DNA from: Escherichia coli
Lineage (GTDB): Bacteria > Pseudomonadota > Gammaproteobacteria > Enterobacterales > Enterobacteriaceae
Assembly (NCBI RefSeq): GCF_003334305.1
Contig: NZ_QOWS01000017.1
Direction: 5' to 3' (one strand)
Length of the DNA: 64,000 nucleotides
A program made the position numbers and the translations under genes. The notes below the pieces were generated by a model. The model was given only the letters and a program-made list of their open reading frames with translations, searched no databases and was not told the origin of the DNA. Below are positions 30,638 through 47,280 of this stretch, one piece after another; within the stretch, counting starts at the first letter, position 1; the number at the start of each line of letters is the position of its first letter.

Positions 30638-30667
30638 TTGCCTTTTTCCGGCATTTGCGGATATAGT
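30638..30667 (+). promoter_or_regulatory. candidate PLE-like sigma70 promoter
   Basis: TTGCCT - 18 nt - TATAGT immediately downstream of vis, where P4 places its early/immunity promoter (recalled). Confidence 0.35.
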
Positions 30668-30991
30668 TTTTCCGTTGCCGCAAAATCGGCAGCCGGGCGT
30701 GAGAACCCGTGTAACTCGAAGGCGACATATGACGCGCCATGCGTCTTTTTTTGTGTCGCAATCAACGCCACAGAGCGCCAGATTATGGTGTGGCGTGTGG
30801 TTTGCCGTGCAGGTATGATCCTGTTCGCAATCGCATGTTATGCCACTGAGTCAATGGTAGCTCAGGCGGGGCAGCCTCCGGGCTGGCCGGTATTCTTCGA
30901 GGCCGGTATTCTCACCCCCGTCTGGGCTATCGCCATCGAGCGTGAGAACTCCGGCGATAGCAGTTATTTGCTACTCGAAGGAGGCTGCCTT

Positions 30992-31189
30992 ATGGCTACA
31001 ACCCTTACCCCCTCACACCCTGAATTTGTCTTTGTGTTTGCGGCTGTCCGTCGCGCAGACCGTCATCCCCGTATCTGCATGCTTCGCACCGTCGCCGGTG
31101 ATGAACGCAGCGCCCGCCGTTCCCTTGTCCGTGACTATGTGCTCTCCCTTGCTGCCCGTCTGCCGGTGGTGGAGGTGTCCCGTGCGTAA
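30992..31189 (+). CDS. Icd-like / P4 kil-region small protein
   Basis: 65 aa [45 protein letters not shown]... with a strong RBS gaaggagg 6 nt upstream. Resembles proteins annotated as Icd-like cell-division inhibitors in P4-like elements (recalled). Confidence 0.5.
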
Positions 31190-31469
31190 TAAAAAAGCCC
31201 CTCAGACCGTCTCAGCACGTCATGACGCCCGTGAACACCTCAGCATTGAGGCTTACCATAAGCTCAACCGCGCCAGCTCCGTATCCCAGTTTGTTGGGGG
31301 TGATTTGATTCACCGTGAACTCTCCGGCCTGCATCAGCTCTACATTCCGCATATTTTCAGCTACCTGAATGAAGATATTGATTTTGTGCTGAATGAGCTG
31401 AAAGCCAAAGGCCTGTGCCGCGATTTTCTCGCCCAGCAGAAAGACCGGGGAGACAGGACGCATGTTTGA
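31182..31469 (+). CDS. eps: Epsilon-like antirepressor (derepresses P2-type helper)
   Basis: 95 aa from a GTG preceded by ggaggtg. Position directly upstream of orf151 as in P4. Confidence 0.6.
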
Positions 31470-31917
31470 TTTTCCCCAGCCCGGTGAGATTTACCGTTCT
31501 GCCGGTTTTCCCGATGTGGCCGTGGTCGGCATTCTGGAAGACGGTATTCCGTGGGAAATGCCGTACCGCTGCCCGGACATTGTCTGGAACCCGTACCGCC
31601 GTAAATTCAGTATCCTTGTGCGTATCCTCGCTGACGGACGCACCACAGACATCCCGCTGGGGCGTTTTCTGCGGGAATTTACCTGTGACCGTCCTGACCT
31701 GTTTAAACGCAGCCCCGTAAACCGGCATGCGGTACTGAAAGAAATGGCCGGAGACCCGGAATTACAGAAATGGCGGGAAAAATATCTGGATATTTACCCG
31801 CAGGCCCCTGTTCCGGTCAGCCGGGCGGCACCGGTGGCGCGGGAATGGCGGGAAATTCCCCGCACGGAGCCTGACCCGGAAATCACCCCGGATAACAGTT
31901 ACCGCAATTATCTGTAA
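31462..31917 (+). CDS. P4 orf151-like protein
   Basis: 151 aa. The start overlaps the epsilon stop. Same length and position as P4 orf151. Confidence 0.65.
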   Translation: MFDFPQPGEIYRSAGFPDVAVVGILEDGIPWEMPYRCPDIVWNPYRRKFSILVRILADGRTTDIPLGRFLREFTCDRPDLFKRSPVNRHAVLKEMAGDPELQKWREKYLDIYPQAPVPVSRAAPVAREWREIPRTEPDPEITPDNSYRNYL

Positions 31918-32052
31918 TTAAAAAACGACACCCGAAAAATTAAATGTGCGTATTCGCGCAGGGATACGCACGTCTTCAGGAGACGCAGATATGCCTTATC
32001 AGTTAATGCAACCGGCACGGAATGCAGTCATCTGTCACAGGGAGGAAAGCAA

Positions 32053-32373
32053 ATGAAAACCCCCTTACCGCCCGTCTTACGCGCAGCCCTTTACCGTCGC
32101 GCTGTCGCCTGTGCCTGGCTGACCGTGTGCGAACGTCAGCACCGCTACCCGCATCTCACCCTTGAATCACTGGAGGCGGCCATCGCCGCTGAGCTGGAAG
32201 GCTTTTATCTGCGCCAGCACGGTGAGGAAAAAGGGCGTCAGATAGCCTGTGCCCTGCTGGAAGATTTAATGGAATCCGGCCCCCTGAAGGCCGCGCCGTC
32301 GCTGTCCTTTCTCGGGCTGGTTGTGATGGATGAACTCTGTGCCCGTCACATAAAAGCGCCGGTACTGCACTGA
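32053..32373 (+). CDS. conserved P4-family hypothetical protein upstream of alpha
   Basis: 106 aa with RBS gggagga. Same position, and as far as I recall the same length, as a P4 left-operon ORF. Confidence 0.55.
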
Positions 32374-32387
32374 AGGAGAACAACACC

Positions 32388-34721: not shown

Positions 34722-34728
34722 CCCACCT

Positions 34729-34753
34729 GACCGGCATCTGCCGGTCTTTTTTT
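34729..34753 (+). terminator. intrinsic terminator after alpha
   Basis: gaccggca-tc-tgccggtc followed by T7. Confidence 0.7.
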
Positions 34754-34767
34754 ATCCCTGAATTCCC

Positions 34768-35070
34768 CGAAGGTGAACAATCCACTGTTCACCCTTCACC
34801 GTATATTCACCCGTTATCACACTGAAATTAAAAGAGAAAAACGAAAGGTGAACAGTGTGAACAATCAAATCAAAAAAAACTTTTTTCTTCCTGAGTGATT
34901 TCAGCACGGGAAATTAATCCCCTGCACAAGTCACACCGGCAGAATGCCGGAGGTGAAGAATCGAATGTTCACCCTTCACCCATTATTCACCACCTATCCA
35001 ACTGAAATAAAAGGAGAAAACAGAAAGGTGAACAGTGTGAACAGTTCTTTCGAAAAAAAATTTTTTTCTT
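34768..35070. repeat. crr-like cis replication region: two ~120-bp direct repeats with TGTTCACC/GGTGAACA octamers
   Basis: 34768-34885 and 34948-35065 align nearly base for base (ggtgaa[c/g]aatc..tgttcacccttcacc..attcacc..gaaaggtgaacagtgtgaaca). About 4.8 kb from the ori cluster, as in P4. Confidence 0.75.
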
Positions 35071-35184
35071 ATTTTTAATTGTGCGAAAAACAAGCGACAC
35101 ACGCAGTGTGTATAGATATGTGTATAGTTATATTTTTTGAATATTATAATGTATTACAAATCAATGTGTTAGCTTGTAATATTC

Positions 35185-35205
35185 ACTCCTATTATCGGCA
35201 CCATC
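35185..35205. repeat. att core copy 2 (attR of P4-like element = attL of second island)
   Basis: Exact 21-bp copy of the thrW 3' end. Confidence 0.85.
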
Positions 35206-35270
35206 AAGAAAATCAATAACTTAGCTTAACTTCTCTAAGAAATTGTATCTTCTGTTATCACTTACAAACG

Positions 35271-35675
35271 CCTATACGTTGTTATGGGCTTTGGTAGTGT
35301 AACACGTATGGGCGAGTAGTTCCCAGGCTCAACCTCGTAACAAGTTCCTTTGAAGCTGGAAGACGTGCCACCGTCTCTAAACCTTCTACCAAAACTCTTA
35401 GCAAGATGTTCCACACCTGGCGCGGTGTCCAATGATGCTACACGTCGTGAGACGTTGCAGAGGATAAACAGGCTAAATGATGGGAAGAGTTTTAAGTGCA
35501 ATAGTGGATTAAAGCCCACCTCTTCAAAACCTAACTTGATCGGGAAAGAATCAAGCTCTAGCACGGTTTCGTCCACCGGAGTACAACGGGTGCCTGATAA
35601 GAGAAGAACTGCTAAGACTTCATAGCTTTTGTGAAAAAGCCCTTTTTAGTGGATACGCCTACGGCGCTTATTTTT
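35271..35675 (+). ncRNA. candidate structured non-coding RNA (class unknown)
   Basis: GC-enriched patch in AT-rich DNA. Contains a 13-bp hairpin (35271-35311), GUGA-capped hairpins (35442-35455 and 35625-35640), 6-bp helices (35484-35525 and 35535-35555), and a weak stem plus T6 at 35656-35676. The only ORFs here are two mutually antisense ones without RBS. Confidence 0.3.
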
Positions 35676-35808
35676 TGGTATAACCATCAAAGGCGCTTTA
35701 TGGCTCCTATTGTCTTGAAAATGTATCTTTACTTGTATTGTGTTTTATGCGTAGTCTCCCTGTGTAGTATGTAACTTGTTAATTTTCATATGAATACAGA
35801 GGCACACG

Positions 35809-35967
35809 ATGAAAAACATTGCAGCTATCAAACGGAATAACCGCAAGATTCACGCTCGTAAGTTCCTGTCTACGCCAGAAGGAAAAGCCTGGCTAGAGCG
35901 TAAACAGAGAGAAAACGAAGAAAGAAAACTCCTTAGTGAGTTGAAATGGCTTAGAGAGGATTTCTGA
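35809..35967 (+). CDS. small basic hypothetical protein (52 aa)
   Basis: MKNIAAIKRNNRKIHARKFLSTPEGKAWLERKQRENEERKLLSELKWLREDF. Weak RBS (gagg). Below the size cutoff of the ORF track. Confidence 0.3.
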   Translation: MKNIAAIKRNNRKIHARKFLSTPEGKAWLERKQRENEERKLLSELKWLREDF

Positions 35968-36310
35968 AAATCTCCAGAACGCAACAGGACGCATTCTAAC
36001 GCTGTTTTCATTACTCGGTATAGGGATTATAGGTGATGTGTGTTTAATGCGTCTGTGAGCTTGTTTTGTGCCTTATTTTGCATTTTCATAATGCAGGAGA
36101 GAACACGGAAAGCCTTAAAATTAATTATTGGGGTATTTAAGGCTATTTTTAGGTTATTTAAGGGTATTAAACTTGATTTAATTGATTGAAATATAAACAG
36201 ATAATTATGTATCTTATTGATTTATAAGGTTATTTTTAAATAAAGGTAAATAAAAAATAAATAGCCATAAATAGCTATAAATACATCTAAATACCTATAT
36301 CCCTTCCCTT

Positions 36311-36694
36311 ATGGCTAGATTGCGAGAAGTGCTTAACGCGATTTTCAGCGCCCCCCGATCTGGAAAATCCAGAATCCCCAAATATCAGCAAGGAATTTTC
36401 TTGCGTAATCAACATCGTTTTTACCTATTAAATCATTACACAGAAAGCCTTTCTGTAATGTCTCTCACTAAACTTTCACTAAACACGAGAATGATCGGTT
36501 TTATGTCGGATCAGATGCTAGAAATAGCACCACGTCTCACAAGGGCTGTAAGCGATGAAACCAGTGTTTATGCGGGTGCAGGTCAAAATATAGGCCAAAA
36601 TACATTTAACATAATAAACGTAATATGCACTAAGGAACACATAGAACGCCTTGAGTTGATGTATCAGGGGAAAAGTGGTGGATTTTTTACGTAG
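36311..36694 (+). CDS. hypothetical protein
   Basis: 127-codon ORF with no recognisable domain and no clear RBS. An internal start at MSLTKLSLNTR is possible. Confidence 0.3.
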   Translation: MARLREVLNAIFSAPRSGKSRIPKYQQGIFLRNQHRFYLLNHYTESLSVMSLTKLSLNTRMIGFMSDQMLEIAPRLTRAVSDETSVYAGAGQNIGQNTFNIINVICTKEHIERLELMYQGKSGGFFT

Positions 36695-36713
36695 GAGCAC
36701 GAGAGGGCTTCTA

Positions 36714-36741
36714 TTGACTTTTGTATGCTATGAAATATAAT
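36714..36741 (+). promoter_or_regulatory. candidate sigma70 promoter
   Basis: TTGACT - 16 nt - TATAAT. It overlaps the putative start of the 36730 ORF, so one of the two calls is probably wrong. Confidence 0.35.
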
Positions 36742-36999
36742 AGAAGGTTTTTTTATGTTGATAGTGATTGCACATTAAAGATTGAAAGCAAATTTAAACA
36801 TAAATTTTCAACACGTGAAAGAGAACTTGTTCGACAAATGATAAAACGTTTATTGAGCAACAATTTTGCAGTGATGCGCTATATGCCGAATTACACAAGG
36901 CTTTGCGAAAGTGATGTAAAAGTGAAGAAAGTAAGAATTGCAACTTTAAGCTACTTTTCATTGAATTTTTTAGTATGGAATTACACAGGAATAAGTTAG
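36730..36999 (+). CDS. hypothetical protein (doubtful)
   Basis: 89-codon ORF from ATG 36730. No domain recognised. The 3' end runs into the TTACAC motif field. Confidence 0.2.
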   Translation: MKYNRRFFYVDSDCTLKIESKFKHKFSTRERELVRQMIKRLLSNNFAVMRYMPNYTRLCESDVKVKKVRIATLSYFSLNFLVWNYTGIS

Positions 37000-37084
37000 G
37001 GATATTCTATGATTTACACAGGGAATATAGGGGGATTATGGCACACACATAGAAAGACATTACACAAAGTGCTATGTGACAAAT

Positions 37085-37305
37085 GGATGTAACGAGAGGT
37101 TACATTCAGCTATCTGAAATGCTCTCTGTAAGAAAGTTGGTAGTAACGATATGTTACATAGACTAATTATTGAATGTAACGATATTACACATCGGTAGTA
37201 ACGATACGTTACATCGACTAATTATTGAATGTAACGATATTACACATCGGTAGTAACGATACGTTACATCGACAGATGATTGGATGTAACGAAAGGTTAC
37301 ACAAT
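37085..37305. repeat. iteron array: 55-bp tandem repeats carrying GTAAC-N5-GTTAC palindromes
   Basis: Units at 37139-37193 and 37194-37248 differ at 2 positions. A third partial unit runs 37249-37302, with a further palindrome atgtaacgagaggttacat at 37087-37105. That makes about 7 palindromic or half-palindromic sites. Confidence 0.85.
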
Positions 37306-37500
37306 AAGACTATATTATTTATAATACTAAATAAAACTATATTAGATTATTAATTAGATCATAATAATATTCTTTATATCTATATATATGATCTTTTGCC
37401 TTCCGGCGTTAGCTTCACTCCCTGGCAAGCAGCCTTACTCCGCTACCTTTCGGGCTACGTTGGCTGGCCCGTTCCGCTCACACCGAAAGCAAAGCGTTAC

Positions 37501-37542
37501 TTTCTTCGTGTAACTATCGTGGCGGTAACGCCCACGAAGAAA
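37501..37542. other. long hairpin with GNRA-capped inner helix inside a GC-rich patch
   Basis: tttcttcgtg (37501-37510) pairs perfectly with cacgaagaaa (37533-37542). Inner ggcg-GTAA-cgcc at 37521-37532. Confidence 0.5.
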
Positions 37543-37624
37543 TACTATTGCGCTGTGCGCAGAAGAGTAATCACCTAACCAATCATAGATTGCTTATGTG
37601 TTAACTCTCTCTACCTCTTAATTC

Positions 37625-37776
37625 CACTTCCTACATTTAATAACTCTGTTATTCTCTGTAGTTGTGTAATTACTCGAAGAGAGAGCGGCTAAAGCTCAAT
37701 TACACTCTGCTTTCCTCGTGTAAGTTCACTAAGCCTCAATACAATTTCACTTCCTACATTCTGTAGTCGTGTAATT
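37625..37776. repeat. dispersed direct repeats (cacttcctacatt and ctgtagtYgtgtaatt)
   Basis: cacttcctacatt at 37625 and 37748. ctgtagttgtgtaatt at 37656 and ctgtagtcgtgtaatt at 37761. The modules are adjacent in copy B and 18 bp apart in copy A. Confidence 0.75.
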
Positions 37777-38398
37777 GTTTTCGGTGGAAAAGCCAGAGGC
37801 GACACCGAAAGAGAATTCTGATCTTATTAATCTTATCTATCTTAGTTAATCTTCTTACTTTATCTACTTTATTATTAATAATAGCTTTATAAGCTCTGTG
37901 TAGCTCTCTGACGCAAGAAACAGCATTCAGGAAGGGAATCACCTTAGAAAAGGTGTTCTTTGCGTCATAATGTGTTTTATGAAGGATTCAGAGGTGTTTC
38001 ATAACAGGAATGTATAGAGGATATTTTAATTAATTAAAAATAAGGGGTCTAAATGCTTCTCTAACAACATTAAGCAGGGTAGGGAATGGAAACGCATTGC
38101 CTACATATAATAAGCTCACTACAGGGCTTTACAGAGCGTTTTATAAAGTGACTCTCTGTTTTATATTTACCATTACCTTTTCATATACCTAACAAATACA
38201 AAATAAGCCCCTTCAATAAGCCTCTGGCGAGCGAAACAGCCATTAGATAAGGGAATGTATTGCTTTTATCAAAATCTCGTCAGAATGCGATTGAGAGTGT
38301 TTTAGCGGATAATGAAGAATAGCACTACATAGAAGAGCACGAATTGTTAAGCAAAATCATAACATACTGAAAAAGATCAGTTTTTTTGTGAAAAGGTA

Positions 38399-38427
38399 TT
38401 GACAAACGTCTCTTTCTGTGCAATAAT
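38399..38427 (+). promoter_or_regulatory. strong sigma70 promoter P1 (extended -10)
   Basis: TTGACA - 17 nt - TGcAATAAT, followed by agg-TATTAG-aGGGG. Paralogous to the promoter at 40928. Confidence 0.65.
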
Positions 38428-38486
38428 AGGTATTAGAGGGGACAGGAATAGATTCTTATCCTCTAAATAATTAAACCAATGCACCG

Positions 38487-38526
38487 CACTTTGAAGCCCA
38501 AGAGGCTTGCAAGGTGTTTTTTCTTT
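38487..38526 (+). terminator. intrinsic terminator ending the P1 leader
   Basis: Interrupted stem (acttt-g-aagcc / ggctt-gc-aaggt) followed by gTTTTTTCTTTT. Ends 29 nt before the first ATG of the operon. Confidence 0.6.
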
Positions 38527-38554
38527 TAACCAAATCGAATAAGGAGGCTAATTA

Positions 38555-38731
38555 ATGAAATATTTCACTCCACAGGATGTAGTAGAAGCCTGGAAACGTG
38601 GTGAGATCAACCGCTTTAAAGTAAGGATGTATAGAAACACCGCTCGCCGTTGTGGTTATCCAGAGCGTGAAAAATGTTTTGACGATGCACTGAAAATTAT
38701 TGATGAACTGCGTAAAGCTGAGAAAGAATAA
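38555..38731 (+). CDS. small hypothetical protein (58 aa)
   Basis: ATG preceded by aaggagg at optimal spacing. MKYFTPQDVVEAWKRGEINRFKVRMYRNTARRCGYPEREKCFDDALKIIDELRKAEKE. Missed by the 60-aa ORF cutoff. Confidence 0.55.
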   Translation: MKYFTPQDVVEAWKRGEINRFKVRMYRNTARRCGYPEREKCFDDALKIIDELRKAEKE

Positions 38732-38753
38732 TAGACAAGAGAAGGAGAAAACT

Positions 38754-38921
38754 ATGAGCGAAACTAAGAAACCAATTCCGCGCACTTACCTTCACGTTGA
38801 CCCTGAAATCTTCAAGGTTTTATTTGCTGAAGCCAAGAAAAGGCAAATTATGGTCAGTGATTTGATGTTAGAAATCATTACTGAAGCAGCAGAGAACATC
38901 AAACAAAAAAAGGGTAAGTGA
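38754..38921 (+). CDS. ribbon-helix-helix (Arc/CopG-like) DNA-binding protein
   Basis: 55 aa from the ATG after gaaggag. The pattern PRTYLHVDPEIFKVLFAEAKKRQIMVSDLMLEIITEAAENI fits strand-helix-helix. Confidence 0.5.
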   Translation: MSETKKPIPRTYLHVDPEIFKVLFAEAKKRQIMVSDLMLEIITEAAENIKQKKGK

Positions 38922-38974
38922 TCCTCATTCACTTTAGTAGCGCATTAAGCGTGATTTATAAGGAGATGATTCTA

Positions 38975-39718
38975 ATGTCTAAAATTAAATTGATTCGTGA
39001 AAAATACCAGTATGTTGATAAACAAACAGGAGAAATTAAAGACCGAACTTTGAATATACCGCATTACTTTTGTGAGATTGAATTTATCTACTCCTCAAGT
39101 GTTGATGGTGGAAAAGTTAAGTTTAGTGCAGAAATGCAAAAATTATATTGCTATGTTTCAGATTGGGAGAAATCAGGGGGGATATGTTTTGAAACACAAA
39201 CGAAGTTAAGTAAAGTTTGTGGCTGTAGCCGTAAGACAGTTAATGAACTGATTGGTCTTATGATTAAAATCGGTCTTTTAGAAGAGGTCGGAGAACGAAT
39301 TCCAAAACGTCCTTTAAAATTACGTGCGCTACCTCTCACAGATGCACATATTACTCCCCCAGGAGAATCATCACTCTCTGATCTTTCTGAGGCAGAAGAA
39401 GCACAGGAACAACCTAAAGGCCATAAACAGCCTTCTTTTGATGTTCTTGATGATTGGGATGCGCCTTTACCGTGGGAGACGGAAGAAACACCTGTTTCAT
39501 CAAGTGAAAAGGTAGCTAATGATAATGAGGAGGATGTATTAGAGAATTTTGCCTCTCTTATCATCCAGGAGAAACACACAAGAACAGGAGGAGCATCATT
39601 TATTGAGTTTGCAAATTCACTAGCTTATAGATACGGGCTAAAACGACCAAATGGTATTGAGGCATATTTTTCTAAGAATTACCCAAATGTATATGATGAA
39701 TTTGATATTCCCTTTTAA
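38975..39718 (+). CDS. wHTH replication-initiator-like protein with acidic linker
   Basis: Start after taaggag. The segment LYCYVSDWEKSGGICFETQTKLSKVCGCSRKTVNELIGLMIKIGLLEE resembles HTH_36-type plasmid/phage Rep N-domains (recalled pattern). Has an acidic D/E/S-rich middle. Confidence 0.45.
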   Translation: MSKIKLIREKYQYVDKQTGEIKDRTLNIPHYFCEIEFIYSSSVDGGKVKFSAEMQKLYCYVSDWEKSGGICFETQTKLSKVCGCSRKTVNELIGLMIKIGLLEEVGERIPKRPLKLRALPLTDAHITPPGESSLSDLSEAEEAQEQPKGHKQPSFDVLDDWDAPLPWETEETPVSSSEKVANDNEEDVLENFASLIIQEKHTRTGGASFIEFANSLAYRYGLKRPNGIEAYFSKNYPNVYDEFDIPF

Positions 39719-39729
39719 TAAGGAGGACT

Positions 39730-40009
39730 ATGATTCAATATTTAGTAAAAAAATCAAGTAGACAGAATTCAGTGTAATGACACAGGAAAACGCATCTACG
39801 AAACACTTGCTTACCTCTATAAAGGAAAGCCAACACCGCTAAAATATAGCGATGTGTTACATCGAGCAGGGTGCTCTGAAGCTGGTTTAAAATTCTGGCT
39901 GAAACAGCTATCAAATTTCGGTGTTATTGAAATGAAAGAGCTGTCTTTTTCTACATTCAATCTCAAAAGATTAGATAAAGAAATAGAATTCATCTATTCC
40001 ACTCTCTAA
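39730..40009 (+). pseudogene. wHTH protein gene interrupted by a frameshift in an A7 run (or using programmed slippage)
   Basis: Strong RBS taaggagg then ATG 39730. The frame closes at 39777. The +1 frame stays open to 40009 and encodes ...GKRIYETLAYLYKGKPTPLKYSDVLHRAGCSEAGLKFWLKQLSNFGVIEMKE. The switch point is A7 at 39747-39753. One fewer A gives a continuous 92-aa ORF. Confidence 0.5.
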
Positions 40010-40050
40010 AATCTCTCTATGTAATTAAAATATAAAAGGAAAACATTATT

Positions 40051-40170
40051 ATGATAGTAGCTATGTATTGGTTATTGTTCTTTCTCACGTTAGAAGCATA
40101 CTTTGGGGTGTTTTCCTTTAAAAGAAAAGGAAAAGTAAATAATGGCAAAAAGAAAAAACAACGTTGTTAA
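40051..40170 (+). CDS. small hydrophobic peptide with polybasic tail (39 aa)
   Basis: MIVAMYWLLFFLTLEAYFGVFSFKRKGKVNNGKKKKQRC: one TM helix plus a K-rich tail. RBS-like aagga 10 nt upstream. Overlaps the next ORF by 29 nt. Confidence 0.3.
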   Translation: MIVAMYWLLFFLTLEAYFGVFSFKRKGKVNNGKKKKQRC

Positions 40171-40558
40171 GAAAATCGGTGATTCAGCTTCTCTTCTAAG
40201 TAAACCTAAACCTAAATCTATTCTAAGACGTAAAGACTTTAAAGAGCTAGTTACGCTCACCAAGCAAAATAGCGCCCCTGGCGAATGGAAAACAGAGATC
40301 ATAGAACATTCTCCCTCTGTGCCTTGTGGAGATGAATTTAACGCCTTGCAAGAAATCTTATCTTCAACACCTGGCGTATTCTGGAAACCTAGAAAAAGAA
40401 AAGAGTATATCGTTGATAGCTCTGATTTACGCAAATACCAGATTTTAGGATTTGAAGATTATAACCACTACGTCGGTTATCTCGCCACCAATGGCCTAAA
40501 TAATTTAGTTCCTGAATTCCAAATTTTAGATAATGCTGATCACTATGGAGACTTTTAA
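40142..40558 (+). CDS. hypothetical protein with basic N-terminus
   Basis: 138 aa in the same orientation as the operon. No domain recognised. Confidence 0.5.
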   Translation: MAKRKNNVVKKIGDSASLLSKPKPKSILRRKDFKELVTLTKQNSAPGEWKTEIIEHSPSVPCGDEFNALQEILSSTPGVFWKPRKRKEYIVDSSDLRKYQILGFEDYNHYVGYLATNGLNNLVPEFQILDNADHYGDF

Positions 40559-40559
40559 T

Positions 40560-40898
40560 ATGAACAAAAACACGTATGACACAATTTATTCACTAATTAA
40601 TTATTATGAGGATGATTACCTCCTGCCTTTAAACCGCGCTGAACTTGAAGCATACAAAGAAAACACGCCAGGGGCGCTAAATGAGGCGTTTAAACACTGG
40701 GATTTAGCTGTGAATGCCTTTGAGCACCTTTCTAAAAGAGTAGAGATGCTCTGTAAGCGTGAAAACGCATACCTGACAGCCGATCAGATATGGGAGCTAT
40801 CAAACTGGATAGAAGATATTGAATCTGATGTTCGCTATGTAGGGGATGGCCTGGTTGAATTAGCTCAACGCTTAGGCGCTACTATCACAGAAGAATAA
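40560..40898 (+). CDS. hypothetical protein
   Basis: 112 aa from an ATG 2 nt after the upstream stop. Helical and acidic. No domain recognised. Confidence 0.5.
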   Translation: MNKNTYDTIYSLINYYEDDYLLPLNRAELEAYKENTPGALNEAFKHWDLAVNAFEHLSKRVEMLCKRENAYLTADQIWELSNWIEDIESDVRYVGDGLVELAQRLGATITEE

Positions 40899-40927
40899 AA
40901 AAAGCAACAAAAAAGTTGTAAAATATC

Positions 40928-40956
40928 TTGACATTCCATCTATTGTATGTTAATAT
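40928..40956 (+). promoter_or_regulatory. strong sigma70 promoter P2 (extended -10)
   Basis: TTGACA - 17 nt - TGtTAATAT, followed by aat-TATATA-GGGG. Same layout as P1. Confidence 0.65.
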
Positions 40957-41094
40957 AATTATATAGGGGTGATTATTTTTCCTTTATTGGTTCGATATTA
41001 AAAATTCTTCCTGTCATTAAAGGGGAGTAAAATCTCCGCTCCCCGCTTCTCCTCCTTAAGTAAATACTGTGTCATTATACCTCTTTTTTCCTTT

Positions 41095-41124
41095 GTTATG
41101 CATACATCTTGGAGTATGCATAAC
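41095..41124. other. perfect 10-bp inverted repeat in the P2 leader
   Basis: gttatgcata-catcttggag-tatgcataac. Confidence 0.6.
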
Positions 41125-41153
41125 ATAGGGTAATTACATAGGTATGAGTTAAT

Positions 41154-41185
41154 AAAAGGCGGCTCTAAATGCTGCCTTTTATTTT
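41154..41185 (+). terminator. intrinsic terminator ending the P2 leader
   Basis: aaaaggcggc-tctaaat-gctgcctttt (10 bp including one G-U) followed by ATTTT. Ends 63 nt before ATG 41248. Confidence 0.65.
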
Positions 41186-41247
41186 GCCCGTTATGCAACT
41201 TAAAAGTTGTATTTCTTACTTTAAAAAAGGTAACAAGGTTTATATAA

Positions 41248-41460
41248 ATGTTGTTTTTAAACGATAAAGAGCAAATCATCAAGTATAAAGATGAAATGCT
41301 GAAAATTAATCCACAAATTACCGAAATGGTAGCTAAATACGCTGGGTGTTCTGTCGAGGAAGTAGAAAGATGTGTTGAAAAATATTTTTCTCCTTCTACT
41401 CCGTCTACACCTTCCCTTAATGAATTAATCAAATTAAAAGCTAAGGAGATTACTAAATGA
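41248..41460 (+). CDS. small hypothetical protein
   Basis: 70 aa. First gene after the P2 leader. The stop overlaps the next start (ATGA). Confidence 0.5.
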   Translation: MLFLNDKEQIIKYKDEMLKINPQITEMVAKYAGCSVEEVERCVEKYFSPSTPSTPSLNELIKLKAKEITK

Positions 41461-41819
41461 TTATTGATTTAGACACTCTGTTTCCAGTTAGAAAGACTTT
41501 CACAGATATTGTAAGTTATTGTACTGATCCGTTTGCCTCTGTAGAAAGCAAGGTTTTTGCTTCTCTTCCTGCTGATGTTGAGTGCGGCGACTTGATCACC
41601 AGTACTGGCGCTAAATATGAATCAGGAGATGATATCTATGTTGTTATGAGTGAATTTGTAACGGCTGGAGAAAACAAGCCTGTAGATGTGCTACGTAGTA
41701 ATGCTGGTCTTGTCTGCATCAAAGCTGATGCGCTGAATGCTGTAAGTGAAGCAGCAAAAACAGCATTAATTAAAAAAGGCTTCCAGCTTGAAGGGTTCCA
41801 TTCTGTTTTCACTTCTTAA
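41457..41819 (+). CDS. head-decoration-like protein (lambda D-like position and size)
   Basis: 120 aa directly upstream of the capsid-like gene. The size and G-rich beta-type pattern loosely resemble lambda gpD-type decoration proteins. The call is based on synteny. Confidence 0.4.
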   Translation: MIIDLDTLFPVRKTFTDIVSYCTDPFASVESKVFASLPADVECGDLITSTGAKYESGDDIYVVMSEFVTAGENKPVDVLRSNAGLVCIKADALNAVSEAAKTALIKKGFQLEGFHSVFTS

Positions 41820-41837
41820 TAAAAGGAATAATAATAA

Positions 41838-42869
41838 ATGATTCTAGGTAATGATTACGTTGATTTAGCTCCGCTTTTCCAGGCACACAGCACTAGAAAC
41901 TTTCTGCTCTCTACCCTCGACTTCACTGATCCGGTGGGCGTTAGTTCTCATAAAGTAGCTGTTTCTCAGCTTGTCGAAAGCAACGAATCTCTGTTCAACA
42001 AAGAAACCTCTCGTTTCTCTTCTGAACACAATGTTACTAAGCGTGAACAAGGTAAAGAATGGCTGATTGAAATCCCGTATTTTCTTCGTGAAGATGTGAT
42101 CCGTCCTTCTGATGTTCAAGGCAAGCGTAAGCCTGGCACTGATTTTCAGGAAACACTCACTGATATCTATGCGGAATATATCGCTAAACACCACGTAGCG
42201 TATCAGCGTACAAAAGAGAGCGTGTTGGCTGCATCTCTGTTTAGCGGTAAAACTTACACGCCTAAAACTGATGATGTTCTTATCGAGTGGGGCAAGCTGT
42301 TTAACGTGGCACCTATGAAAGCCACCTTGAACGCTTCCAGCACTGACACAATGACCGTTTTCAAGCAATTTGACCAGCTTGCTACGGATATGATTGCTAA
42401 GGCACAAAACCAGGCTGCAACCATTGAGCGTGTTGTTGTGTTCTGTAAACCTGCGGCATTCAACGCTATTCGTTACAGTGTTGGTATGGTCAATGCTTTC
42501 CAATATGCAAGCCCTGTAGACGATGCCAACGTGGTGTTTAATGTGCGTTCCCTGCTACCAGGTGTAACTACTTTCACCATTCCAGGAACTAACATTGACC
42601 TGATCAAAGTGACTGATCCGCTACACCTTGCACATATGGCTTCTGATGCGGTTGCTGTGCCTAAATTCGCTAAGGGGGCAGGTGTTTACCAATCTATCTA
42701 TGGGGCAGCTTCCAGCACCTTTGAACTGATCAATGCCGCTCCTGCTGAGGTGTATAGCTATAGCTATGAATCTTCTTCTCGTGGTGATGCTGTTAACGTT
42801 GTTACAGAGAATAGCCAGATGGTGGTAAACCACGGCGTTGGTTTCTCCGTTCAAATCACTGTTAAATAA
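41838..42869 (+). CDS. major capsid protein, lambda gpE-like family (putative)
   Basis: 343 aa (lambda gpE is 341 aa). N-terminal LAPLFQAHSTRNFLLSTLDF resembles the P.TFLLDTFF motif I recall from Phage_cap_E proteins. RBS aaaggaa. Followed by a strong terminator. Confidence 0.5.
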   Translation: MILGNDYVDLAPLFQAHSTRNFLLSTLDFTDPVGVSSHKVAVSQLVESNESLFNKETSRFSSEHNVTKREQGKEWLIEIPYFLREDVIRPSDVQGKRKPGTDFQETLTDIYAEYIAKHHVAYQRTKESVLAASLFSGKTYTPKTDDVLIEWGKLFNVAPMKATLNASSTDTMTVFKQFDQLATDMIAKAQNQAATIERVVVFCKPAAFNAIRYSVGMVNAFQYASPVDDANVVFNVRSLLPGVTTFTIPGTNIDLIKVTDPLHLAHMASDAVAVPKFAKGAGVYQSIYGAASSTFELINAAPAEVYSYSYESSSRGDAVNVVTENSQMVVNHGVGFSVQITVK

Positions 42870-42887
42870 TATTTTAACGTGTAATAG

Positions 42888-42922
42888 AGGCGTGGCGTGA
42901 ATAACACGCTTCGCCTTTTTTT
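42888..42922 (+). terminator. intrinsic terminator after the capsid-like gene
   Basis: aggcg-tg-gcgtg aataa cacgc-tt-cgcct followed by T6. Confidence 0.7.
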
Positions 42923-42955
42923 ATTTATTTTTAAATTTTGAGAGGTGATTAAAAT

Positions 42956-43159
42956 ATGGAAGTGATTCTGAAATCAAAAAATGGTGTACACGTTTATTTA
43001 GATGCTAATGATTCAAGAGGCTTGTTAAATCTGAAATATCTATGTTCTCTCTTGGATGTTCCATATGAAGGCGTAAAAGCCCGAATGTTCAGATTAAACG
43101 AGAGTATTGATCAAGCTCTACACCATTTCTTAAGCAAAGAAGGTGGTAAAAATGATTAA
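42956..43159 (+). CDS. small hypothetical protein (possible HTH)
   Basis: 67 aa with RBS gagagg. The segment LKYLCSLLDVPYEGVKARMFRLNESIDQAL looks HTH-like. Confidence 0.45.
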   Translation: MEVILKSKNGVHVYLDANDSRGLLNLKYLCSLLDVPYEGVKARMFRLNESIDQALHHFLSKEGGKND

Positions 43160-43173
43160 TAAGGGGATTTTAA

Positions 43174-45012
43174 ATGTTAGAAATTAACACTTCTAAAATT
43201 AAGAACACAGTAACATTTAGTGTAGATAAAGACAGCTTGAAAAAAGCGAAAGACTCTATTACAGGCTTAAAGGAATTCACAGAAAACATCAAGCCAGCTA
43301 AATTAAGGTTTGATAGTGTCACTAAAGGCTATAAGAAAGCACAAAGCGAAGTAGACAAGATTGCTCAACAGAAAGCTAAAACAGAAAAGCAGAATCAAAG
43401 AGCACAAGCTGCCGCAGCAAGAGCACAGGCAAGGCAACAGACACAAATAGCAGCACGTAAAGAGAAAGCAGAATTAAAGCTCCTCGATGTGTCAAGCTCT
43501 ATCAGTGCAATGCACCGCCTCTCTGTAGCGGAACAATACAAAGCTATTGCACAGGCTAGAGAGATAGCAAAACAATATGAGCAAGGGGCTATCTCGCTTG
43601 CACGTATGAATAGTCAGATGAAACGCCTACAACAGCAACAACGTAAGATTAATGGCAACAGAAAAGCTCAATTAGCCCCCGTTAAGGGAGGAGGATCAGG
43701 GAATTCCGCCACGATGGGTGCTCTGTTATTTGGAGGCGCTACAGCGGCTGCTGGCGTGATGGCTGTTAGTAAAGCGTCGGAGTTTGTTAGTAACAGTTTC
43801 GCTAACGCAGAGACACAAGGTGAGCTAATTCAACGTGCAAGGCTTGGCGGTGTAGACGTTAACCAGATGTACAACATTACAGAATGGGCCTATAGAAACG
43901 GCGTTGACTCTATGATGGGTGATCAAGGGGCTAGGAAATACCTGGATCAGATGAAAGATGTTAGGGAACGTGCCGCAAAATCCTATAGTGAAGCTGAATA
44001 TGTAGTCGATAAAAAAACTGGTAAAGGCGGCGAATGGAAAGGCGGTGATAACGCTATTAATGAACTTCTAAACATCGGTGTTATTAACAAGAGCGACCTT
44101 AAAAAATTTGCTGATAATCCAGCCGGATTAATTTCTAAGGCTGTTAATGGAATGATGAAAAAAGGGTTTTCAGACTCCCAAATTGGACAACGTTTAGAAG
44201 ACCTGGGTGATGATTTGATGCTTACATCAAAATATTGGCAACGTTCCGTTAAAGATGTACAAACAAGCATCGAGCAGCAAAAAGCCTCTGGAAAATGGCT
44301 AACAGAAACACAGCAAGATTCTATTGTTAAATTCAGAGAACTAAACAGACAGCTTTCACAGCTTTCTGATGCAAGACAAGTAGCATTTGTAGACGGCTTT
44401 ATGAAATCTCTCGATCCAAAAGTAACGGAAGAGTTTATGAAAAACCTTTCTAATCTCACTCCGTATTTTACAAAGCTGGGAGAAGCTACAGGAAGTCTCT
44501 TTGAAGCTATTATGAAGATTGTAAACTGGTTTAATCGTAATGATGATAAGACAGATGCTATTCAGAAAAATTTAGGTGATGCACCGCCATTAAGCAATGA
44601 AGGAATGAAACAGAATCTTTCTAATCTCGTTCCTGATCAATATAAAGGCGCTGGCACCGGAACAACTAAGCCAGATAACAGCAATTCCCTGTTTAACACT
44701 ATTAAGGGATTGCTTTTCGATGATAAGTCTTCTTCTGTGTCAGATGTAAAAATGTCAGTCAGCGAAGCACCGATAACCAATCTCAAACAGGGCGCTTTAA
44801 ATAATCTTGCAATGACAACTCCGGCTTATAATTTATCTCCTGTGTTTAATCTGAATCCTACATTTGAAGTGGTAACAGAGGTTCCTCTTACTATTAATTC
44901 TGACACATCAAGATTAAGCGATTATGTGGATTTTACAGCGAGATCAAGTCGGGATAGCTTCTTGAAATCATTAACATTAACCAGCTTATCAGGACAATCT
45001 AACGGCGGGTAA
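43174..45012 (+). CDS. tape-measure-like protein
   Basis: 612 aa. N-terminal Q/A/K-rich coiled coil, Gly-rich hydrophobic segment GGGSGNSATMGALLFGGATAAAGVMAV, then a long helical region. This composition is typical of tail tape measure proteins. Confidence 0.45.
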   Translation: MLEINTSKIKNTVTFSVDKDSLKKAKDSITGLKEFTENIKPAKLRFDSVTKGYKKAQSEVDKIAQQKAKTEKQNQRAQAAAARAQARQQTQIAARKEKAELKLLDVSSSISAMHRLSVAEQYKAIAQAREIAKQYEQGAISLARMNSQMKRLQQQQRKINGNRKAQLAPVKGGGSGNSATMGALLFGGATAAAGVMAVSKASEFVSNSFANAETQGELIQRARLGGVDVNQMYNITEWAYRNGVDSMMGDQGARKYLDQMKDVRERAAKSYSEAEYVVDKKTGKGGEWKGGDNAINELLNIGVINKSDLKKFADNPAGLISKAVNGMMKKGFSDSQIGQRLEDLGDDLMLTSKYWQRSVKDVQTSIEQQKASGKWLTETQQDSIVKFRELNRQLSQLSDARQVAFVDGFMKSLDPKVTEEFMKNLSNLTPYFTKLGEATGSLFEAIMKIVNWFNRNDDKTDAIQKNLGDAPPLSNEGMKQNLSNLVPDQYKGAGTGTTKPDNSNSLFNTIKGLLFDDKSSSVSDVKMSVSEAPITNLKQGALNNLAMTTPAYNLSPVFNLNPTFEVVTEVPLTINSDTSRLSDYVDFTARSSRDSFLKSLTLTSLSGQSNGG

Positions 45013-45046
45013 TTCCCGCCATAACATTACAAGGAAAATTATTATT

Positions 45047-45760
45047 ATGGCGACCGCCGGGATTTTAACCATACGTGCAGCAAATACTCCAGAACAACAC
45101 GTTCAGGCTGTTTACAAAGCAGAACAAGATATAAATTCTACAAAAAACGAAAATAGCAAAGCTAATAAAACAAAAGGAGAGAACGGATTTGCTATTGTTA
45201 CCAGTGGCTTGGCATCTTCTGGCAATGACGTTTATGAAAATTATATGGCCCTGGCCTTTGACAGTGTAGACGATGTGAACGTGAGACGTTCGGCAGATGT
45301 CACAAGCTACCCCGTAGAAAATGGTGCTACTGTGTCTGATCACGTTCAAATTAAAAACAATAAGTTTTCTCTTAAAGGAAGGATCACTGAAACACCGATT
45401 AAAAGCGATCCTGGCTTGTTAAAGAGTGCAGGGGTGAACGGGAACAGAAGATCATTAGCCATAGACTACTTGAATCAGATTATGGACAGTAGACAGCCTT
45501 TTCTTCTTGTTACAGAAAATAAAACTTTTGAGAACGTTGTTTTAACAGGCATCGAATACACAGAAGAGGCAAGCGAATCCCTGGTATTTGATCTTAGCTT
45601 TGAGCAGATCAGATTAGTTTCTTATGGCACTGTATCCACTATTGCACTTAAAACACAACCATCTAAGAACATCGGGGCGAATATGAAAAAACGTGTTAAC
45701 ACTGAAAAATCAAGTAGTGAAGGTGAAGACACTATTACTCCTGCCTTTAAGCAGAAATAG
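45047..45760 (+). CDS. putative virion (tail-lumen / tube-initiator-like) protein
   Basis: 237 aa directly after the TMP-like gene. The motif VTSYPVENGATVSDHVQIKNNKFSLKGRITE recalls the (H)EYPGRD..VEDLG...S..G pattern of Mu gp43-type tail proteins. The resemblance is weak. Confidence 0.3.
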   Translation: MATAGILTIRAANTPEQHVQAVYKAEQDINSTKNENSKANKTKGENGFAIVTSGLASSGNDVYENYMALAFDSVDDVNVRRSADVTSYPVENGATVSDHVQIKNNKFSLKGRITETPIKSDPGLLKSAGVNGNRRSLAIDYLNQIMDSRQPFLLVTENKTFENVVLTGIEYTEEASESLVFDLSFEQIRLVSYGTVSTIALKTQPSKNIGANMKKRVNTEKSSSEGEDTITPAFKQK

Positions 45761-45801
45761 CCGTAAACGCCTCTAAAACGCTCTGTAACGATGTAATTAT
45801 A

Positions 45802-45834
45802 AAAGAGGCTGCCAATCTATGTTGAAGCCTCTTT
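45802..45834. terminator. bidirectional hairpin between convergent genes
   Basis: aaagaggct - 15 nt - agcctcttt, a 9-bp perfect stem between the 45760 stop and the integrase stop. Confidence 0.55.
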
Positions 45835-45841
45835 ATTGTGT

Positions 45842-47206
45842 TTATGGCGTTGTTTTACGCCTTAAATTTGATTTTTTATTGATTGATAAGCCTTTCTCTA
45901 TTTCAGGGTAGCGTAGAAGCTCAATATAGTTTTTAAGCTCTACTGGAGAAGCTGCATTCTTGCTATATGTGCGGAATGTCTCTGTATTGCCGCGTGTATG
46001 GCCCAGGAGAAGGGCGATCCTGTCTTCTGGAATTTGATTTCGATCAAGAAGCTGTGCTACTCCGTGTCTCAGAGAATGAAACACTTTCCTTTCTGTTCCC
46101 TTTTCCCCTAAAGCCTTTCGTTTAGCTCTTGTAAATCTCTGCGTGTGCCACGTGGAACGTTTACCATCAGCACGCTCTGTAATGCTGGCGTGATAGAACA
46201 AAAAGCCATTATGAGGCTTTTCACGCAGCGACAACACCAACGGAGTGATAAGGCTATGTACAGGCACAACACGTGCCGCAGCTTTCGTTTTTCCCTGTGT
46301 GATTTCAAAACACAGCACACCTTCGATCTCTTTCACATCGTCTATTGTGAGACTTGCTATCTCATTGATCCGCATACCTGTATATAAACCGATAAGACAC
46401 AAAGCCATCATTTCTTTGTTTTCTGCTGAATTACCGGAAAATACTTGCAACACCTGCAATAGCTCTTTGTTAGAAAATGCCTCGTAGCTCTCTCTACTTT
46501 GTGCCACATCAAGCCTATGCCCTCGCCAGGGGGAGAGCGCCCTTTCTGGCGCATCGTGGTAACGTGATGAAGCTAACTCCCATAGCTGGGCTATTGGGCT
46601 GATATAATTTGCAATTGATTGTTGTGAAAGAGTTTTTTGCATGTGTTCTATCCAGCCTGTAACAGTGGTGCGGCTCACATCTTGCAATGCAATATCAGGC
46701 TTTTTACGGTAGGAGAGAAACATCTCTACCGCTTTTCTTGCCTTAGCTAAAGTGGCTGGCTTCTTCTTCGTGCTGTTAATTGTCAGGTAGATTTCAAGAA
46801 TTTTAAGCAATGACGGACACGAAGACGCTGTATCTTGCATTCTGGTAGCTGTTTTGGCGTATTTAGCCTTACTGCGTAACAGCTCCAGCGTGTTCTCTAT
46901 TGTGCTGTTTACAGGGGCGACACTCTCCCGTAGGCAATGGTATTCATCTGCAATCTGATCACGCTTTCTACGTGCAACACGAAGATTATTTGTGTGTAGA
47001 CTTCTGACAAACGTCCTTTTTCCTTCAAAAAAGGGCTGCATATACACAGGCAGCGTGATCCTTAAATAGTAGTTACCGTAAGAATCACAGATTAAGTATT
47101 GGTTAGGCTTGTATCTCATAAAATCTCCGGCTAAAGTGTCGGAGCGTTTGTAATGTGAAAATTGATTGTAACGCATAGAAAATGATAATTTTTCTATAAG
47201 ATTCAA
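45842..47206 (-). CDS. tyrosine recombinase/integrase of the second island (K-12 IntF-like position)
   Basis: 454 aa. Catalytic R (TGMRINEIASL), HxLRH (FHSLRHGVAQLL) and HTRGNTETFRTYSK (H...Y). N-terminal YYLRITLPVYMQPFFEGKRTFVRSLHT arm-type domain. Adjacent to the thrW-like fragment, as intF-ptwF is in K-12 (recalled). Confidence 0.85.
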   Translation of the reverse strand: MNLIEKLSFSMRYNQFSHYKRSDTLAGDFMRYKPNQYLICDSYGNYYLRITLPVYMQPFFEGKRTFVRSLHTNNLRVARRKRDQIADEYHCLRESVAPVNSTIENTLELLRSKAKYAKTATRMQDTASSCPSLLKILEIYLTINSTKKKPATLAKARKAVEMFLSYRKKPDIALQDVSRTTVTGWIEHMQKTLSQQSIANYISPIAQLWELASSRYHDAPERALSPWRGHRLDVAQSRESYEAFSNKELLQVLQVFSGNSAENKEMMALCLIGLYTGMRINEIASLTIDDVKEIEGVLCFEITQGKTKAAARVVPVHSLITPLVLSLREKPHNGFLFYHASITERADGKRSTWHTQRFTRAKRKALGEKGTERKVFHSLRHGVAQLLDRNQIPEDRIALLLGHTRGNTETFRTYSKNAASPVELKNYIELLRYPEIEKGLSINKKSNLRRKTTP

Positions 47207-47217
47207 TCAATTAGTAA

Positions 47218-47280
47218 TGGTCGTAGGTGATGGCATTAACACGAGATTAATCGAGTGTTTTACTCCTATTATCGCACCAT
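47218..47280 (+). pseudogene. thrW-like tRNA 3' fragment / degenerate att core copy 3 (ptwF-like)
   Basis: ggtcgtaggt (as thrW 23328-23337), then 34 nt of unrelated sequence (47228-47261), then actcctattatcg-caccat (thrW 3' end with a 1-nt deletion). Confidence 0.65.

Follow-up and report, generated by a model that had tools for sequence, protein, structure and literature searches.

Known phage satellites either re-size the coat of their helper (P4, SaPI, PLE) or carry a full head-packaging module of their own (cf-PICI, MiniFlayer). The cf-PICIs encode a portal, a maturation protease, head-tail adaptor and closure proteins, HNH, TerS and TerL, and possess no tail genes (PMC10690885, PMC13230959); the cf-PICI capsid tree published in PMC13230959 uses PF05065. 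Among the satellites of virulent helpers, MulchRoom and MiniFlayer of Streptomyces are thought to use satellite-encoded capsids (PMC10690885), and PICMI is described as having no capsid-remodelling genes (PMC10803314). The present work concerns a 64,000-nt stretch of Escherichia coli DNA (contig NZ_QOWS01000017.1 of assembly GCF_003334305.1; called the window below), in which a decoration-like gene and a major capsid protein (MCP) gene lie inside an integrative island of about 12.1 kb at thrW (35185-47274, 34-43% G+C). It is considered rather probable that this capsid pair is the head-shell module of an integrative satellite of about 12 kb which parasitises phi92-like virulent myoviruses. If this is true, a shell-only element fills the gap between the two strategies mentioned above.

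In a wider sense, the island and its relatives may represent a new family of Enterobacterales satellites, a proposal given a little better than an even chance. Its members would encode their own shell, tape-measure-like protein (TMP) and tube initiator, borrow the rest from the helper, be packaged by means of a direct terminal repeat (DTR) junction and switch alleles with the helper genus. Of the complete E. coli genomes, about 7-8% contain such an island, extraintestinal and avian pathogenic strains (ExPEC, APEC) included. As far as can be judged from sequence comparison, the satellite reading is the most economical and the most likely one.

Capsid pair and its operon

The 343-aa protein is, judging by its profile matches, a genuine MCP of the Phage_cap_E type. 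It reached 53.3 bits against Pfam PF03864 (E 2.8e-14, with a gathering cut-off of 22.9 bits), the match spanning residues 24-342 of the protein and positions 19-329 of the 329 in the profile, and it was also matched by PHROG 29, ‘major head protein’. A profile built from the MCP family aligned in the PDB with the solved phi92 capsid protein gp124 from end to end (residues 3-342 against 4-332, E 7.5e-18), and the capsid proteins of PhiTE, Bas63 and Sf14 were matched as well. The AlphaFold2 model, made from a shallow alignment, had a pLDDT of 57.6 with disordered N-arm and E-loop regions. Its best 12 Foldseek matches, among them the capsids of ICP1 (8g1r), PhiTE, Bas63 and Sf14, were all HK97-fold phage capsids with probability 1.0, but with a TM of just 0.33-0.38. 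For the 120-aa protein, the resemblance to decoration proteins is one of predicted fold: its model, with a pLDDT of about 80 in the core, is similar to solved capsid decoration proteins (lambda gpD, PhiTE and Sf14 type), with no sequence-family match in Pfam, PHROG, NCBIfam, PADLOC or PDB.

The two open reading frames (ORFs) are separated by 18 nt, and the same arrangement of decoration gene and MCP gene was seen in all relatives. Homologues of the MCP (37-94% identity) occur only on Enterobacterales chromosomes and always in the same island context. The MCP gene has a dN/dS of 0.11-0.16, and the two capsid genes together of 0.07-0.23. The MCP allele of the window is unusually divergent, with 85-89% amino acid identity to those of other E. 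coli islands (loci L002 and L010-L024 of the comparison), the flanking decoration, TMP and Dit genes of which are 87-100%, mostly 94-100%, identical to those of the window. A capsid operon at least 99% identical to that of the window was found in only two of 5426 complete E. coli genomes, and its capsid gene appears, from these identities, to be mosaic or recombinant.

The pair is transcribed, to judge from the signals around it, as part of an operon whose promoter is kept in 12 E. coli islands. A leader of about 290 nt follows, with a hairpin about 60 nt 5' of the first gene, orf70 (RNAfold gave about -22 kcal/mol over 41140-41200). The position of this hairpin and its T-tract is kept in at least five divergent island lineages from several genera, and their stem sequences differ. 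The stop codon of orf70 overlaps the start of the decoration gene, and the protein is 42-99% identical in relatives (dN/dS 0.08-0.26). Between the promoter and the leader hairpin a perfect palindrome, TTATGCATAC-ATCTTGGA-GTATGCATAA, is located at 41096-41123, which could be an operator or an RNA element. A scan of 34-48 kb with Rfam gave no credible RNA family. Mimicry of helper late promoters was considered and set aside as not discriminating: both the island and the structural region of phi92 have sigma-70-like TTGACA promoters with an extended -10.

An earlier note, made from the letters of the window alone, had already described a 120-aa ORF followed by a 343-aa ORF at 41457-42869. These coordinates were borne out, with a spacer of 18 nt instead of the 19 given there. 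Its recognition of the larger product as gpE-like is sustained by PF03864, PHROG 29 and the gp124 profile match, and that of the smaller one as decoration-like by fold similarity only, at the level of a model. The order, which had been compared with lambda D-E, is correct as well, and a closer parallel can be found in gp123-gp124 of phi92. The promoter-leader-terminator unit proposed in the note was also recovered, with orf70 as an additional gene of the operon.

Links to phi92-like phages

The phi92-like phages are virulent myoviruses of 145-150 kb which belong to the subfamily Stephanstirmvirinae and have no lysogeny. In phi92 the genes are ordered as TerL, portal, gp121, scaffold, decoration gp123, MCP gp124, sheath, tube, chaperone, gp133, TMP gp134 and initiator gp135, and the gene order of the island matches two excerpts of this list, gp123-124 and gp133-135. 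The island TMP is 56% identical to gp134 over residues 1-66 and 26% identical over the remainder; in the DNA, identity reaches 86% over the first 87 nt, and the profile of the TMP family hits gp134 at 3.5e-110. The Dit-like protein is 61% identical to gp135 (2e-92; 2e-95 with the family profile) with a nearly identical N-terminus, and all its best matches are Justusliebigvirus proteins named ‘tail tube initiator’, at 58-61% identity. When the profiles of the island families were run against all phi92 ORFs, only the MCP (2e-17), TMP and Dit gave matches, orf138 and orf112 giving none. Small orf67 sits in the position of gp133 without detectable similarity to it. The head genes are far more distant from phi92 than the tail genes, and the TMP is a core gene of the island family across genera.

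The tail genes do not all lead to the same helper genus. In E. coli, TMP and Dit also occur in a second allele (63% and 60% identical to those of the window, respectively), which is closest to Phapecoctavirus and not to Justusliebigvirus, and the TMP of the Klebsiella islands is closest to Phapecoctavirus-like phages. In the island locus L021, positions 2986-3554, which comprise orf55 and the 5' end of the Rep gene (compare 38754-38921 in the window), share 96-98% DNA identity with the Justusliebigvirus phages inny (inny_185/184) and muut, which implies recent DNA exchange between the islands and the Justusliebigvirus lineage. The predicted helpers are virulent phi92-like myoviruses of the genera Justusliebigvirus and Phapecoctavirus. 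Five records labelled ‘Campylobacter phage’ (MG065639, MG065645, MG065656, MG065689 and MG065650) behaved as phi92- or Phapecoctavirus-like coliphages in every comparison (TMP, Dit, terminus site), and their host label looks doubtful.

The second link is a short stretch of DNA in which no gene is annotated. The genome of phi92 has annotated direct terminal repeats of 343 bp, and the island holds, on the minus strand, a probable mimic of their inner boundary, the core of which (36314-36359) is 93.5% identical to phi92 318-363 over 46 nt (E 1.7e-12). In the orientation of the phage, the junction of the island reads ATCGGGGGGCGCTGAAAATCGCGTTA/AGCACTTCTCGCAATCTAGC, where the slash marks the boundary, at 36333/36334 in the window: all 26 of 26 nt before it are the last 26 nt of the phi92 genome, and 17 of 20 nt after it are the phi92 sequence 3' of the left repeat. 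Among 50,697 phage records the terminus site was found in phi92-like phages only (62 records), and its position is about 291-368 in all records with defined ends (phi92, W22, PHB05, VEcB, UAB_1 and Klebsiella phage phi1_175008). Stephanstirmvirinae of Klebsiella and Citrobacter align with the island over 68-79 nt with the common blocks GATATTTGGGG and CTGAAAATCGCGTTAAGCACCTCTCGCAA. Of the island loci, 11 contain a 29-nt core without any change and two others contain it with one or two mismatches, and none of 220 shuffled loci matched it. The site is present in 426 of the 5426 complete E. coli genomes (about 8%), in 385 of them at 95% identity or more, and at no occurrence is a gene annotated there. 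A second co-linear segment, internal to the DTR, is marginal, and in the window it is weak.

The locus L021, with TMP and Dit of Phapecoctavirus type, is without the phi92-type site. It has instead an 83-nt segment 80% identical to Phapecoctavirus DNA that is situated 270-357 nt from the genome end in WPEC1, WPEC2, WPEC4 and KKP 3954. The junction of the 328-bp DTR of WPEC4 is ...TTCGCGTT(A)/AGCACTTC, and the segment of L021, ...GAATTGTCGCCGCGTGGACCTGACGGCGCTGATCTTCGCGTTA/AACATTG, spans it. By these alignments, two island variants carry the terminus junctions of two helper genera, and the site co-varies with the helper genus. At the level of sequence, what the island carries is probably the packaging signal of its helper.

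Island architecture, relatives and neighbourhood

The features of the island are collected in Table 1. Copies of the tRNA-Thr(CGT) 3' end at 23340, 35185 and 47262 delimit two tandem elements, the left att of the island being at the same time the right att of a neighbouring P4-like satellite. From att to att the island measures 12,077 bp, and over nine distinct islands this length ranges from 12.0 to 13.4 kb. The integrase contains PF00589, DUF6538 and SAM-like domains and matches phrog_1 at E 1.5e-33.

Table 1. Position, strand and basis of the features recognised in the thrW island (positions in the window)
Feature	Position	Strand	Basis or remarks
Left att repeat ACTCCTATTATCGGCACCATC, copy of the thrW 3' end	35185-35205		Exact repeat
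orf52, small conserved ORF	35809-35967	+	RefSeq; 78-100% identity in many related loci, including other genera
Putative mimic of the phi92-type DTR inner boundary	36310-36387, core 36314-36359	-	DNA comparison with phi92
Iteron array, five TGTAACGAnAnGTTACA-type copies, mostly 55 nt apart	37084-37303	+	Repeat search
Sigma-70-type promoter (TTGACA-17-AATAAT with TG), 5' of the orf58-orf55-Rep operon	38399-38427	+	Consensus, 11/12 positions
orf58, small conserved ORF	38555-38731	+	31-100% identity across genera
orf55, small conserved ORF	38754-38921	+	RefSeq CDS; near-identical copy in phages inny and muut
Rep-like winged-helix protein, 247 aa	38975-39718	+	PHROG replication-initiator families
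orf138, core island protein with basic N-terminus	40142-40558	+	In nearly all loci; dN/dS 0.17-0.24
orf112, core island protein, acidic, helical-looking by eye	40560-40898	+	Conserved; dN/dS 0.10-0.17
Sigma-70-type promoter with extended -10 (TTGACA-17-TAATAT), head of the capsid-operon leader	40928-40956	+	Consensus scan
Leader hairpin and U-tract (terminator or attenuator)	41154-41186	+	RNAfold
orf70, first gene of the capsid operon	41248-41460	+	ORF call; conservation
Decoration/cement-like protein, 120 aa	41457-41819	+	Fold similarity; adjoins the MCP gene
MCP, 343 aa, Phage_cap_E/HK97 type, without delta domain	41838-42869	+	Pfam, PHROG and PDB profile match
Intrinsic terminator closing the capsid operon	42887-42926	+	About -20.6 kcal/mol, then T7 run
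orf67, small core ORF 5' of the TMP gene	42956-43159	+	dN/dS 0.06-0.29
TMP, 612 aa, homologue of phi92 gp134	43174-45012	+	phrog_16051, E 4.4e-54
Dit-like tail-tube-initiator or baseplate protein, 237 aa	45047-45760	+	PF21821, E 4.3e-29
Tyrosine integrase, 425 aa as annotated, thrW-distal end	45842-47119	-	Domains, PHROG, RefSeq
Right att core ACTCCTATTATCG, 13 nt	47262-47274		Repeat match

A replication module is suggested by the Rep-like protein and the iterons. The matches of this protein to the PHROG replication-initiator families (best 9e-7) and to HTH_36 are weak, and the proteins of relatives carry DUF6945. The Rep gene is replaceable, other Rep types of up to 485 aa being held in the same slot by related islands. 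The Rep-like protein is presumed to be an initiator acting on the iterons, and their array is presumed to be the replication origin; one further iteron copy was noticed at 39847-39865. The array and the terminus site are both contained in an ORF-poor stretch of 2.6 kb at 35.9-38.5 kb. No family match was obtained for orf138, orf112, orf70, orf67, orf58, orf55 or orf52 in Pfam, PHROG, NCBIfam, PADLOC or PDB, and the island is annotated as hypothetical proteins only and has historically been lumped into a thrW ‘pathogenicity island’.

Apart from the MCP gene, only three ORFs, coding for the integrase and for the Rep-like and TMP-like proteins, reach about 250 aa or more, both in this island and in the related ones. 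Families of portal, maturation protease, connector and terminase/HNH are missing among the island ORFs in Pfam, PHROG and NCBIfam, and in 15 related loci there was no tblastn match to TerL, portal, gp121, scaffold, sheath, tube or hub of phi92. Because there is no other ORF of about 250 aa in the island, the portal and large terminase are absent and not merely unrecognised.

The surroundings of the capsid pair (tail genes, integrase, att sites and replication module) had been missed in the earlier note. According to it only the shell proteins are brought along, which does not hold, as homologues of TMP and tail-tube initiator lie directly downstream. Lambdoid or other siphophage helpers, which it had suggested, are rejected, all homologies pointing to virulent phi92-like myoviruses of the Stephanstirmvirinae. 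Its statement that portal, protease and terminase are lacking stands, with 15 loci compared and no room left for them; the absence of a scaffold, also stated there, is not demonstrable, considering that four conserved small ORFs have no assigned function. The argument that a mobile element with a shell would have to use the portal and motor of a helper has been strengthened by the terminus mimic, the integrase, the att sites and the presumed replication module, all of which are consistent with the capsid piracy proposed in the note.

Homologues of both proteins of the capsid pair, with 37-98% identity, were found on Enterobacterales chromosomes only, in Escherichia, Klebsiella, Citrobacter, Enterobacter, Cronobacter, Kluyvera, Buttiauxella, Scandinavium, Sodalis and Serratia. 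In about 45 loci the same order recurs: Rep-type gene, orf138, orf112, orf70, decoration gene, MCP gene, orf67, TMP gene, an optional Dit gene and the integrase gene. As dN/dS is about 0.05-0.25 for every core gene, it can be said that these genes are maintained and working. The capsid operon is present in 390 of the 5426 E. coli genomes, always on the chromosome and in up to three copies per genome. The islands of Klebsiella and Sodalis occupy different chromosomal sites, and those of Klebsiella (L004-L006, about 2968-5083) have at the left end an extra gene for a 205-aa integrase-like protein and a Dam methyltransferase gene.

The window is a part of the E. coli chromosome reaching from proA and thrW to paoABCD and ecp, and it is 100% identical to strain A7. 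In APEC O1 (L002, NC_008563 295044-313072) the island directly adjoins thrW; beyond it come an integrase remnant, the gene of a MarR-type regulator and that of the vat autotransporter toxin. A 20-kb ‘PAI-APECO1-thrW’ is listed in PMC7545054, and the island makes up its thrW-proximal 12 kb. The P4-like satellite next to the island (23340-35205), integrated in tandem at thrW, contains int (23523-24692), psu (28220-28792), ogr/delta (28807-29052), a sid-like gene (29049-29849) and the alpha primase gene (32388-34721). In its int-proximal hotspot a Gabija system is located, with GajA at 24694-26397 (E 1e-253) and GajB at 26394-28016 (E 3e-229), and at its right end there is a direct repeat of 120 nt (34767-34886 and 34947-35066; 81% identity, 180 nt apart).

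Proposed satellite cycle, its rivals and known systems

The proposed cycle begins with the island at thrW between its att repeats, with its own tyrosine integrase, a step that can be read directly from the DNA. Upon infection with a helper, the island would be excised and replicated from the iteron origin by the Rep-like initiator, and transcription would proceed past the leader hairpin into the orf70, decoration and MCP genes. The shell is supplied without a portal or a motor, and hence those of the helper would have to be borrowed. The island MCP and the decoration protein would build a small shell on the helper portal, sized for 12-13 kb and probably of T=4 symmetry; this estimate is made by analogy with P4, the genome of which has 11.6 kb. 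The helper terminase is then expected to cut the junction copy (...CGCGTTA/AGCAC...), which is visible in the sequence, and to fill the small heads. These would join contractile tails of the helper, nucleated or modified by the island TMP and tube initiator, whose homology is evident and whose role is proposed here. The helper genome of 148 kb is too large for such shells, and in this way the helper would also be inhibited. The possible roles of the island TMP and initiator include extra nucleators giving more and slightly shorter tails, satellite-specific delivery of DNA, or interference with the helper. Their helper-like termini suggest that they have to dock onto helper chaperones and baseplate parts. 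A generic definition of a phage satellite appears to fit the island in every feature that can be tested on sequence.

There are several observations which weigh against such a cycle. The structure models of MCP and decoration protein are of modest confidence, the MCP is only about 20% identical to phi92 gp124, and no sequence similarity between the decoration protein and gp123 could be detected. A search of the island for a mimic of the left DTR boundary brought up nothing convincing. Outside E. coli the phi92-type core is absent from the islands, save for a half-site in L003 and a weak match in the Klebsiella islands; islands of the Klebsiella type lack the Dit-like gene and have ORFs of 42 and 92 aa instead. 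Helper-specific signals may also be mixed, as in the mosaic locus L019 (IMGVR_UViG_2534682060_000015), where TMP and Dit of Phapecoctavirus type are combined with the phi92-type site. The matches to the island in IMG/VR are prophage predictions from isolate genomes and include no packaged or excised form. Likewise, the island-specific site occurs in 25 metagenome contigs and 12 viral contigs, all of them chromosomal; none is circular or ends at the cut site.

This lack of packaged island DNA in IMG/VR and metagenome contigs would be expected if the island were a decoy for defence, in which the capsid, TMP and initiator homologues and the copied site poison the head and tail assembly of phi92-like phages and titrate their terminase to the benefit of the bacterial population, no particle is transferred, and the integrase provides ordinary mobility. 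The earlier note had considered such a dominant-negative function; it is retained here as a rival, an unlikely one. Interference with tail assembly is a known defence strategy (PMC11364771), and the tandem neighbour of the island is a defence-carrying satellite; nevertheless, no island protein matched any PADLOC defence model. Both tail proteins have helper-like interaction ends and diverged middles, most clearly the TMP and the N-terminus of Dit, and their alleles track the helper genera, as they would in an arms race. For the capsid genes the decoy explanation is less suitable: a full-length pair of MCP and decoration protein is kept under purifying selection, and the MCP is too distant from its target for efficient co-assembly. 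A decoy also has no need of a Rep-iteron module or of the size constraint of 12.0-13.4 kb and, given the att sites, integrase, Rep and iterons, terminus mimic and constrained size, it is less economical than a satellite. Interference and satellite transfer are, however, compatible with each other.

The distance of the head genes from phi92, much greater than that of the tail genes, may also be explained by another helper, perhaps a temperate phage whose capsid is E-like, with the portal and terminase of which the shell genes would work. The satellite would then have acquired the phi92-like tail genes and the site secondarily by recombination and make little use of them in packaging. The best tblastn matches of the MCP among phages are in fact Pseudomonas Pakpunavirus and a Limnohabitans phage with 23-25% identity, but no MCP closer than about 25% exists in the 50,697 phage records and therefore there is no better candidate, and among solved structures the best relative is still phi92 gp124. 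Mosaicism is frequent, as L019 and the rare MCP allele of the window demonstrate. On the other side, the TMP is core across genera, and the site, besides following the helper genus, is strongly conserved, with at least 95% identity in 385 of the 426 genomes. A different helper is accordingly regarded as quite improbable. As to an inert remnant of a cryptic prophage without current function, the chance is very slight. The hypothetical-only annotation, the ‘pathogenicity island’ label and the ORF-poor stretch could give such an impression, yet it is in this stretch that the conserved terminus site and the iterons are located. Islands of Escherichia, Klebsiella, Citrobacter, Enterobacter, Kluyvera, Buttiauxella, Scandinavium and Sodalis share one reduced gene set, in one order and with intact ORFs, every core gene has the low dN/dS given above, and the related phages are virulent myoviruses of 145-150 kb without lysogeny.

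Should the satellite reading be true, compatibility between MCP and portal spans a sequence identity of about 20%, and the terminus mimic provides a precise hypothesis of how DTR-type terminases of the phi92-like group recognise their substrate. Phi92-like phages, Justusliebigvirus and Phapecoctavirus are popular candidates for therapy and biocontrol. If the island, which 7-8% of E. coli genomes contain, hijacks or blocks them, this would matter for predictions of host range and for phage therapy; neighbouring virulence DNA, for instance the vat locus at thrW, could also be mobilised by it. As far as found, it would be without precedent both as a satellite of virulent phages in E. coli and as a satellite carrying tail-assembly nucleators. 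Searches of the open-access literature brought up no description of the island as a satellite, a prior description elsewhere being possible; the ‘novel satellite’ of gut E. coli in PMC12251178 is a different element, without structural genes.

Among the known systems, P4 is similar in its size of about 12 kb, its integration into a tRNA gene of E. coli, its small capsid excluding the helper genome and its packaging by the helper terminase through a copied helper site (cos in P4). It differs in having no capsid protein, re-sizing the MCP of P2 by the external scaffold Sid instead, and in having a temperate helper. The island is not a member of the P4-like group, none of psu, delta, sid and alpha being present in it; all of them lie in the neighbour at 23.3-35.2 kb. 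PLE of Vibrio cholerae, with ICP1 as helper, and PICMI of Vibrionaceae are, like the proposed satellite, chromosomal satellites of virulent phages that depend on the helper for packaging and virion parts, and the island MCP has the ICP1 capsid (8g1r) as one of its best structural matches. Both use helper coat proteins, which PLE remodels with TcaP, and genes for an MCP, a tape measure or a tube initiator are present in neither; they also differ from the island in host and recombinase. No link to PLE or PICMI appeared in Pfam, PHROG, NCBIfam or PADLOC, which are general libraries, with no direct comparison to PLE or PICMI sequences.

Satellites with their own capsid genes come closer in this respect. 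MulchRoom and MiniFlayer carry TerS, TerL, portal, scaffold, MCP and adaptor and no recognisable replicase, and they are unrelated to the island in sequence and host. The cf-PICI/cf-PISP elements share with it a length of about 10-15 kb, an own MCP of HK97 type distinct from phage MCPs, an integrase and, presumably, a replication module and satellite-sized heads that join helper tails. Membership in cf-PICI was nevertheless rejected on account of the portal, protease, connectors and terminase, which the island lacks, and of the tail genes, which it has; moreover, its MCP belongs to PF03864 and not to PF05065. The order of phi92 itself is reproduced in both parts, decoration gene to MCP gene and small ORF to TMP and tube initiator, in an island without TerL, portal, scaffold, neck, sheath, tube, chaperone and hub, and with a TMP 47 aa shorter (612 against 659 aa). 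What distinguishes the island from cf-PICI can be summarised as an MCP and a decoration protein only, a terminus-site mimic in place of a terminase, and two tail-assembly genes.

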